Below, one piece after another: positions 4,827 to 5,285 of a DNA stretch of 64,000 bases (its first letter is position 1; every line of letters starts with the position of its first letter). Location of the stretch: NCBI GenBank assembly GCA_963759805.1, contig CAVXAT010000001.1, forward strand, positions 128,001 to 192,000, read 5' to 3'. The position numbers and the translations under genes are program-made. Under the pieces are notes generated by a model that did not search any database, was not told the DNA's origin, and saw nothing but the letters and a program-made list of their open reading frames with translations. This DNA is from an uncultured bacterium (GTDB lineage Bacteria > Babelota > Babeliae > Babelales > RVW-14).

Positions 4827-4863
4827 AGCCCTGTGTCATCCTGAACTCGTTTCAGGATCCATA
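4827..4863 (+). repeat. 37-bp inverted repeat, left copy, containing REP family A palindrome
   Basis: agccctgtgtcatcctgaactcgtttcaggatccata is the exact reverse complement of 5249..5285. Confidence 0.95.
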
Positions 4864-4933
4864 GATTAATAAGATTCCATCAGGGGTTTTTATACTATCA
4901 TTCAAAAAAAATAGCGCTAAAAAACATTATACC

Positions 4934-5233
4934 ATGAAAACATACGTTGTTTATATTCTTGCCAACAATCCACTAGGAACTTTGTACATTGGCGTTACCA
5001 ATGACTTAAAACGACGTATGAATGAACATAAACTTGGACTTGTTGATGGATTTACTAAAAAATACGGCTTAAAAAAATTGGTCTATGTGGAACAATTCAG
5101 ATACATTAATGATGCACTTACCAGAGAAAAGCAATTTAAGCGTTGGCATCGAGAGTGGAAAATTAATCTCATTTCAGAGCATAATCCGCAATGGGCCGAC
5201 TTGTATGAAATAATTTTTGGATCTGAAATATAA
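4934..5233 (+). CDS. Small stand-alone GIY-YIG nuclease family protein
   Basis: YVVYIL...GTLYIGVTNDLKRRMNEHK...FTKKY...ALTREKQFK...WK...NPQW motifs; 99 aa. Confidence 0.92.
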   Translation: MKTYVVYILANNPLGTLYIGVTNDLKRRMNEHKLGLVDGFTKKYGLKKLVYVEQFRYINDALTREKQFKRWHREWKINLISEHNPQWADLYEIIFGSEI

Positions 5234-5248
5234 GGATTACATACAAAT

Positions 5249-5285
5249 TATGGATCCTGAAACGAGTTCAGGATGACACAGGGCT
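5249..5285 (-). repeat. 37-bp inverted repeat, right copy (REP family A)
   Basis: tatggatcctgaaacgagttcaggatgacacagggct. Confidence 0.95.

Follow-up and report, generated by a model that had tools for sequence, protein, structure and literature searches.

A probable Ssn-family GIY-YIG nuclease gene between inverted, outward-tagged TGTC REPs in a Dependentiae genome

Here we describe a 99-aa GIY-YIG nuclease gene that lies between two inverted, outward-tagged REPs in a 64,000-nucleotide stretch of DNA (the window, by which we mean that whole stretch) from a bacterium of the phylum Dependentiae. Judged by protein homology and the make-up of its hairpins, the locus appears to be a member of the Ssn family and to extend the system published by Chenal et al. 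(2025, Nat Commun 16:2388, PMC11893778). We consider it probable that the gene encodes an Ssn nuclease that would bind the flanking hairpins as single-stranded DNA (ssDNA) and nick a few nucleotides 5′ of the tag; that gene and hairpins form a selfish cassette is the less certain part of this reading. What is new is the phylum, an A/T-richer stem that is missed by the published search pattern for such repeats (SRM), and a cassette nested in a shell inside a split REP. The locus would take Ssn into a phylum of intracellular symbionts and into transposon-like nested packaging. An earlier note on this DNA knew of no established enzyme for CGTC/TGTC-tagged REPs. That premise is out of date: as far as association and cleavage in vitro are concerned, the question was answered by the 2025 Ssn paper, which reports that four purified homologs bind and cut ssDNA hairpins (PMC11893778).

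The gene occupies 4934..5233 on the forward strand and its product has a single domain, with Pfam PF01541 (GIY-YIG) covering residues 4-78 of the 99-aa open reading frame (E 1.1e-15). The interior of the cassette (~4878-5241) is present in one copy in the host genome, which comprises 1.50 Mb with 37.5% G+C in 21 contigs and is rated 88.7% complete; the window is C1:128001-192000 of this genome, and the best-matching proteins carry names that assign it to Candidatus Dependentiae (TM6). Residues Y7, Y18, R28, E53 and E65, which would include the catalytic GIY and YIG tyrosines, the arginine and the metal-binding glutamate of GIY-YIG enzymes, form invariant columns in an alignment with homologs from the genus Neisseria, Proteobacteria and Dependentiae, and a C-terminal motif (W-R-x-WK..LIE..NP-W-DL) is common to the window protein and the Ssn-type homologs and lacking from UPF0213-like paralogs. 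UPF0213 or YhbQ-like proteins (PDB 1zg2, 1ywl) resemble the window protein in size and fold class, but this identity was rejected given its weak match to 1zg2 (E 0.0026); the two other small GIY-YIG genes of the host genome, by comparison, match UPF0213 at E 2e-13 and lack the Ssn C-terminal motif. Homing endonucleases of the I-TevI type combine a GIY-YIG domain with a C-terminal DNA-binding domain and typically reside inside an intron. This assignment was also rejected, as the window protein has 99 aa only, scores 24 bits against the TIGR01453 cut-off of 56 and lacks an intron context; the sole match in the NCBIfam search was a sub-threshold one to a group I intron endonuclease. PADLOC assigned the protein to no defence-system family, and the viral contigs searched yielded no relative.

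The claim of the earlier note that the gene lies between exact 37-bp inverted repeats is borne out by arms at 4827-4863 and 5249-5285, which are 37 nt long and 100% complementary and which extend to 50 nt at 92% complementarity (4814-4863 / 5249-5298). The left REP, an Ssn-related hairpin at 4834..4862 on the forward strand, consists of a TGTC tag, the 8-bp stem ATCCTGAA, the loop CTCGT, the returning stem TTCAGGAT and the tail CCAT, and as ssDNA it folds at −6.8 kcal/mol (z −2.8). Its counterpart on the reverse strand, at 5250..5278, reads ATGG, ATCCTGAA, ACGAG, TTCAGGAT and GACA, with a bottom-strand fold of −7.1 kcal/mol (z −3.9). Both tags point outward, and a spacer of 393 nt containing the gene lies between the two REPs. 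Directly 5′ of the left TGTC tag is a conserved outer linker (ttgctttgatcgaagccctg, 4814..4833, forward strand), which is part of the 50-nt inverted repeat and recurs beside at least five other REPs; its partner is the right outer linker cagggctctggtgaaagcaatcaga at 5279..5303 on the reverse strand.

In the system as published, SsnA of Neisseria meningitidis is a 94-aa single-domain GIY-YIG protein assigned to CDD cd10448 (GIY-YIG_unchar_3), and hairpin repeats are reported near 71% of Ssn homologs and on both sides of 42%; these repeats are termed NTS, CGTCATTCCCGCGMAVGCGGGAATCYRG, and more generally SRM (PMC11893778). Our reference for Ssn homology was the set of homologs from the genus of Neisseria lactamica. 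It was reached through a scan of genome contigs for NTS, which returned loci in many phyla, among them a locus in N. lactamica that led to 61 genomes of that genus. Twenty of these 61 genomes encode a homolog of the window protein, with E-values of 1e-22 to 7e-31 and 42-57% identity, the operational cut-off given for ssnA homology being tblastn E < 1e-10 (PMC11893778). All 10 of the 10 loci fetched from this genus adjoin NTS or NTS-like hairpins, five with the exact 28-nt NTS consensus (for example L208, L211 and L214), and the open reading frame of L208 shares 51% identity with the window protein by BLASTP (E 3e-31). Further homologs come from Povalibacter uvarum and Devosia naphthalenivorans, at 52-53% identity, and from a Sphingorhabdus MAG with the NTS core on either side of the gene, the three together spanning 44-53% identity. 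N. lactamica NS19 has no homolog of the window protein; its sole small GIY-YIG gene is UPF0213-like, with no dRS3 or NTS nearby.

The window locus resembles the published Ssn/NTS-SRM arrangement in its protein, a single-domain GIY-YIG protein in the range of ~95-100 aa with conserved catalytic residues, in the inverted and oriented hairpins that flank the gene, each with a (C/T)GTC head and a C after the palindrome, and in the dispersal of the repeat through the genome, mostly between genes. It differs in its stem, ATCCTGAA, which is A/T-richer and closes a 5-nt loop whereas the Neisseria repeat has ATTCCCGCG and a 4-nt loop, in its host phylum, Dependentiae, and in the nesting of the cassette in a second shell inside a split REP. 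The published SRM pattern has no match between 4700 and 5400 and two unrelated matches in the host genome; the stem CCTGAA of the window repeat fails the YYVSBRH positions. This pattern, built from 29 genomes (PMC11893778), is a search heuristic and not a functional definition, and because it overlooks A/T-richer hairpins of this kind the reach of the family is underestimated. In Supplementary Data 4 of that paper, the one Dependentiae genome found, Babela massiliensis, is listed without an SRM and without ssnA (PMC11893778). Since a change of stem sequence is reported to abolish Ssn activity (PMC11893778), and the stems at the window locus differ from those of homologs ~50% identical to its protein, the specificity of the window protein must have co-evolved with its repeat.

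The repeat is overrepresented in the window: allowing up to two mismatches, the palindrome ATCCTGAA-N5-TTCAGGAT occurs eight times in the window against 0.06 expected, a number reached in none of 100 shuffles. The genome-wide count called for by the earlier note gives 36 exact palindromes and 52 oriented copies, the latter with a pattern that admits a compensatory ATGC..GCAT stem (ATGCTGAA..TTCAGCAT). All 52 oriented copies carry the TGTC head, 48 have a C directly after the palindrome and 34 continue with CATGGA to give the tail CCATGGA, while the stem variants divide into 38 ATCC and 14 ATGC. Six of the 52 lie wholly within open reading frames of at least 120 aa, compared with 86.9% of the genome. 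Seven doublets are present genome-wide, with tags outward and a 57-nt spacer, and six of the seven are heterodimers of the ATCC and ATGC variants. These properties match the published description of CGTC-tagged REPs, which have a CGTC head (TGTC in many repeats), an 8-9-bp stem starting with AT, a 4-5-nt loop and a CCA tail, are frequently arranged as dimers including heterodimers and are mostly extragenic (Di Nocera, De Gregorio and Rocco 2013, BMC Genomics 14:522, PMC3733652). The window repeat agrees with each point (TGTC head, 8-bp AT-starting stem, 5-nt loop, CCA tail, dimers and heterodimers, extragenic position), and the associated enzyme is supplied by the Ssn paper (PMC11893778) together with the window locus.

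Every copy of the palindrome listed in the earlier note, whether singlet, doublet or split, was found. A singlet lies at 17428..17452 on the reverse strand, and a second, at 34579..34607 on the forward strand (palindrome at 34583), retains the inner tail of the cassette, ccatagattaataa. Gene-less doublets with tags outward are located at 46280..46388 (palindromes 46284/46364, 57-nt spacer) and at 59850..59958 (palindromes 59854/59934), the latter an ATCC/ATGC heterodimer with a cassette-like outer flank ending in ..ctttcatcgaagtactgtgtc; both this flank and the inner tail at 34579 are present as the note described them. On the reverse strand at 31351..31639, a 264-bp MITE interrupts a REP (31351/31615); its ends are those of the shell, and 13 bp, TGAATCAAGTTCA, are directly duplicated. 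The orientation of the cassette is that of the doublets, with a gene-holding spacer in place of the 57-nt one, and the hairpin and ~12 nt of tail are all that doublets and cassette have in common.

Around the cassette is a second inverted-repeat shell, which itself lies in the apex of a split REP. A further inverted pair is found outside the arms at 4749-4781 and 5303-5335 (33 nt, 85%), and reading inward it resolves into distinct elements. The left half of the split REP (4745..4765, forward strand) comprises TGTC, ATCCTGAA, the loop TTTAT and a degenerate start of the 3′ stem, and it pairs with the right half at 5319..5336 (forward strand; TGAA, CTTGA, TTCAGGAT and C). Between these halves and the linkers are the terminal inverted repeats of the shell, on the left TAAC TGTCCGAAGTG (4766..4781, forward strand, complementary to 5303-5318) and on the right CACTTCGGACA GGTA (5304..5318, reverse strand). 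The same shell termini bound the copies of the 264-bp MITE, and the split-REP form recurs at four 264-bp insertions elsewhere in the host genome. The flanks of the cassette are a mosaic of repeated modules, the series of REP, linker, shell end and half REP being repeated at C1:213431-213503, C4:14266-14350 and C2:214446-214514, and a gene-less sibling at C2:214290-214560 has the module order of the cassette around a 93-nt spacer, also inside a split REP. The left side of the cassette is longer than the side of the right linker by ~27 nt.

REPs are frequent in the intergenic DNA of the host, and ordinary terminator-like hairpins or REPs could stand by coincidence on either side of an unrelated small gene. 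We give this reading virtually no weight, and it is already refuted by controls drawn from related genomes and from the host genome. Matches to the window protein at E 1e-5 or better were found in 44 of 61 related genomes, the window's own included; these relatives are kin to one another and are mostly draft MAGs. Using an ungapped inverted-repeat scorer with 350-nt flanks and a score of at least 18, inverted repeats bracket 22 of 26 homolog loci (29 loci, of which three were too near a contig end), as opposed to one of 50 off-gene intervals of the same loci and two of 1000 random intervals of the host genome, one of these two being the host's other GIY-YIG gene. The REPtron-like layout proposed in the earlier note holds for the window and generalises beyond it. 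Among 80 metagenome loci with 55-89% identity, 33 of 79 testable loci are bracketed versus one of 84 controls, and the arm contains the GTC tag in 27 of these 33, often with the exact Neisseria-type core TGTCATTCCCGCG..CGGGAATCCA. A terminator function also finds no support, as a promoter and terminator scan of 4600-5500 returned sites no more numerous than in shuffles, with none at the REPs and no T-tract terminator there.

Across the relatives, hairpins keep the frame GTC-AT..AT-CCA and their stems vary by lineage, usually with the matching variant on both arms (15 of the 21 loci, from 39 examined, at which strict hairpins flank the gene left and right). The co-variation of REP and protein that the earlier note proposed to look for was detected among these related loci, the distance between stems correlating with that between proteins (Mantel r 0.36, n=24, equalled in 0 of 2000 permutations), although kinship among the loci means that the test is not independent. 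Genomes with the repeat also tend to carry the gene, as the note would expect, but with exceptions. Repeats were counted in 60 relatives with the pattern GTCATCC-N11-16-GGATCC, which ignores stem pairing and whose reversed control gave 0-1 matches per genome. Of the 23 genomes with a homolog at E 1e-15 or better, all within a set of kin genomes, 21 contain at least five repeats, but so do six of the 37 that lack such a close homolog: G004 with 143, G034 with 37, G040 with 22, G020 with 15, G019 with 10 and G053 with 7. G004 has a single homolog, of 32% identity, on either side of which stands a different inverted repeat of 60 nt, and G034 has a gene fragment only.

These exceptions bear on a second alternative, in which something else spreads the repeats and the nuclease gene merely rides along as a selfish homing passenger: the enzyme would cut REP doublets and its gene would be copied in by repair, so that the hairpins would be a target and not the ends of an element. 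Besides the REP-rich genomes that lack the gene, it would account for a cassette oriented exactly as the gene-less doublets are, with the gene replacing the 57-nt spacer, and REP apices do serve as insertion targets for another element in the host genome. Against it, the published Ssn enzymes are described as sparing double-stranded DNA and as cutting outside the hairpin, not between two hairpins (PMC11893778), the stems on either side of a gene vary together with its protein, and in one relative (G014) a duplicated cassette includes the hairpins and ~70-170 nt beyond them. On balance we consider the passenger reading improbable.

Whether the cassette as a whole has moved is addressed by several relatives. 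Across 428 nt that take in the hairpins and 70-170 nt beyond them, the two cassette copies in G014 share 95.8% identity, and their flanks are unrelated. A metagenome cassette, L222, with 89% amino acid and 86% nucleotide identity to that of the window, keeps the shell end and half REP and adjoins a homolog of host contig C10:42187-42646 instead of the window's neighbours. At the equivalent position of host C10 there is no cassette and no REP, the intergenic DNA being too diverged for an exact empty site to be defined. In G003, G007 and G025, the cassette and a homolog of the window's GNAT neighbour are found on different contigs or ~16 kb apart. A search for empty sites in G001-G003, G007 and G025, which belong to the same genus or family as the host, through two neighbour proteins placed GNAT homologs of 28-51% identity elsewhere and gave no match for the RING protein; no exact empty site was obtained in these genomes because they are too diverged. 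Taken together, the G014 duplicate, the changed neighbourhood of L222 and the gene-less sibling lend circumstantial support to a role of the nuclease as mobiliser. The single copy of the gene in the host genome counts against such a role, as do the REP-rich genomes without a close gene (G004, G034), the little sequence that doublets have in common with the cassette, the low identity (70-83%) of most paralog pairs and the placing of the two predicted nicks on opposite strands.

The same observations have to be weighed against domestication, under which nuclease and repeats would form a system of genome maintenance or ssDNA restriction and the repeats would be recognition marks that the nuclease does not, or no longer does, spread. 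A precedent is reported in N. meningitidis, where NTS and SsnA lower the integration of transforming DNA and domestication is proposed (PMC11893778). The window gene is intact and single-copy and the repeats are almost all extragenic, as this reading would have it; most within-genome cassette copies in the relatives are 70-83% identical, and for that reason the paralogs are mostly old. Fitting it less well are the near-identical duplicate in G014, the gene fragments and multiple copies found in several relatives (nine matches in G014, seven in G015) and cassettes in G003, G007, G025 and L222 that lack synteny with the window's neighbours, and the transposon-like nesting fits it poorly. We regard domestication as a possible but less probable account than the one preferred here, the less certain part of which is that gene and hairpins make up a present or past selfish cassette.

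How the preferred account would operate can be proposed from the biochemistry reported for four purified Ssn homologs, which bind the hairpin as ssDNA and cut ssDNA only, on the NTS strand only and just upstream of the hairpin, with double-stranded DNA left uncut (PMC11893778). Binding is said there to depend most on the C after the palindrome, and cutting on the three bases that precede it (PMC11893778); these are the positions that the host repeat conserves, with TGTC in 52 of 52 copies and the C in 48. By analogy, when a repeat is exposed as ssDNA during replication, during repair or on incoming DNA, its hairpin would fold, the window protein would recognise the stem and the C that follows it, and the TGTC-bearing strand would be cut just outside the hairpin. 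Nicks are predicted on the top strand to the left of 4834 (near 4825-4833), which by the SsnA analogy would be at the 3′ end of the 4814-4833 linker, and on the bottom strand to the right of 5278 (near 5279-5287); the two would mark the outer borders of the cassette and fall on opposite strands because the hairpins are inverted with their tags outward. With less certainty, the gene and its two hairpins would be a present or former selfish cassette that moves as a unit, and the gene-less doublets and singlets may be its non-autonomous relatives. Each new pair of an Ssn protein and its hairpin is, in addition, a possible reagent that would cut ssDNA with a new specificity.

A more ambitious version of this account is that the locus is an autonomous and still active Ssn mobile element in Dependentiae, the nuclease of which would drive the spread of TGTC-REP doublets, with REP apices as integration sites (as the symmetric 13-bp duplication may suggest) and successive insertions nested in the manner of Russian dolls. 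We put this forward tentatively and think it rather unlikely in this full form; if true, it would explain how CGTC-type REPs propagate, along a GIY-YIG pathway that has nothing to do with HUH transposases. That the nuclease spreads REPs is a hypothesis already in print, as the Discussion of the Ssn paper likens NTS-ssnA-NTS to an insertion sequence and draws the parallel with RAYT and REP (PMC11893778).

REPtrons, in which a RAYT gene is associated with GTAG REPs, share with the window a small nuclease gene between inverted copies of a dispersed genomic hairpin; the gene-less doublets resemble REPINs, and RAYT, like the published Ssn enzymes, recognises its hairpin as ssDNA. In fold and chemistry the two are nevertheless unrelated, a hydrolytic GIY-YIG nuclease standing against the HUH Y1 transposase of RAYT, and the tag is TGTC rather than GTAG. 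HUH tyrosine transposases form a covalent intermediate, while for Ssn we know of no strand-transfer activity. Membership of the REPtrons proper was rejected for the GIY-YIG protein and the TGTC tag, the layout alone being held in common. Elements of the IS200/IS605 group similarly have subterminal hairpins recognised as ssDNA, as published for Ssn, and no long coding capacity. Their ends point the same way along one strand, and the enzyme that cuts them is an HUH transposase. The window hairpins are inverted with nicks predicted on opposite strands, a misfit with one-strand peel-and-paste, and we know of no single-strand transposition scheme that such a geometry would suit. As ssDNA, the REP units of the host each form an 8-bp hairpin of −6.2 to −7.1 kcal/mol, and the gene-less doublet at 46280..46388 folds at −29.5 kcal/mol (z −7.4).

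Hairpin-bearing repeats also bracket the two other small GIY-YIG genes of the host Dependentiae genome, G000, both of which lie outside the window (G000:C1:266297-266590, equivalent to locus L033:1492-1785, and G000:C9:54549-54788). These genes are UPF0213-like by their match to PDB 1zg2 (E 2e-13), and the inverted repeats that flank them are of a different kind from the REP of the ssn cassette, with arms of 47 nt that carry an outward CGTC tag, a 7-bp hairpin and the motif GTATCGAAGGAT. Related arms are present at distant homologs in relatives (loci L028, L030, L032, L216 and L218), so the Ssn clade may not be the only one whose genes are bracketed by hairpins.

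Modules related to these arms also occur in the interior of a G+C-rich, 264-bp MITE, whose termini are those of the shell, the outer inverted-repeat pair around the ssn cassette. Four copies, 97.7-100% identical, are found in G000 (window 31351-31639; G000:C1:41130-41414; G000:C4:96464-96748; G000:C8:91569-91853), each of them inserted at a REP apex and accompanied by a 13-bp direct duplication (TGAA-loop-TTCA). Because the duplicated sequence varies from one site to another, it is a target duplication.

Among the relatives, a genome of the same family, G004, carries 143 copies of GTCATCCTCGCG..CGGGGATCC-type repeats, despite which a close ssn homolog was not found in its 91% complete assembly. 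On a broader scale, a scan of genome_contigs for the Neisseria NTS, the hairpin repeat cut by SsnA, returned exact matches to its 25-nt core in at least 131 stretches; among the matches listed, the records (L064-L143) are labelled Dehalococcoidia, Planctomycetes, Bacteroidota, Verrucomicrobia, Latescibacterota and many Proteobacteria.

The ssn copy closest to that of the window, with 89% amino acid identity to its protein, lies on a metagenome contig (L222:730-1023) and has a TGA at the position of the window's Trp71 codon. The contig has ∼3x coverage, and the TGA either marks a pseudogene or is a contig error. In some Dependentiae relatives (L005, L007, L010 and L022) the ssn reading frame stays open as far as the downstream REP and continues into it, acquiring a hairpin-encoded C-terminal tail such as ..MDPETSSG.

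Elsewhere in the window, two adjacent genes encode proteins with an N-terminal hydrophobic segment and RING-finger matches, clear in one (2998-3516; zf-rbx1, E 7e-10; zf-C3HC4, E 4e-8) and weak in the other (3435-4355); both have the appearance of eukaryote-like E3-ligase effectors made by an intracellular symbiont. A 520-aa AAA_35-type ATPase (6505-8067; E 4e-15) has a weak C-terminal PD-(D/E)XK match.
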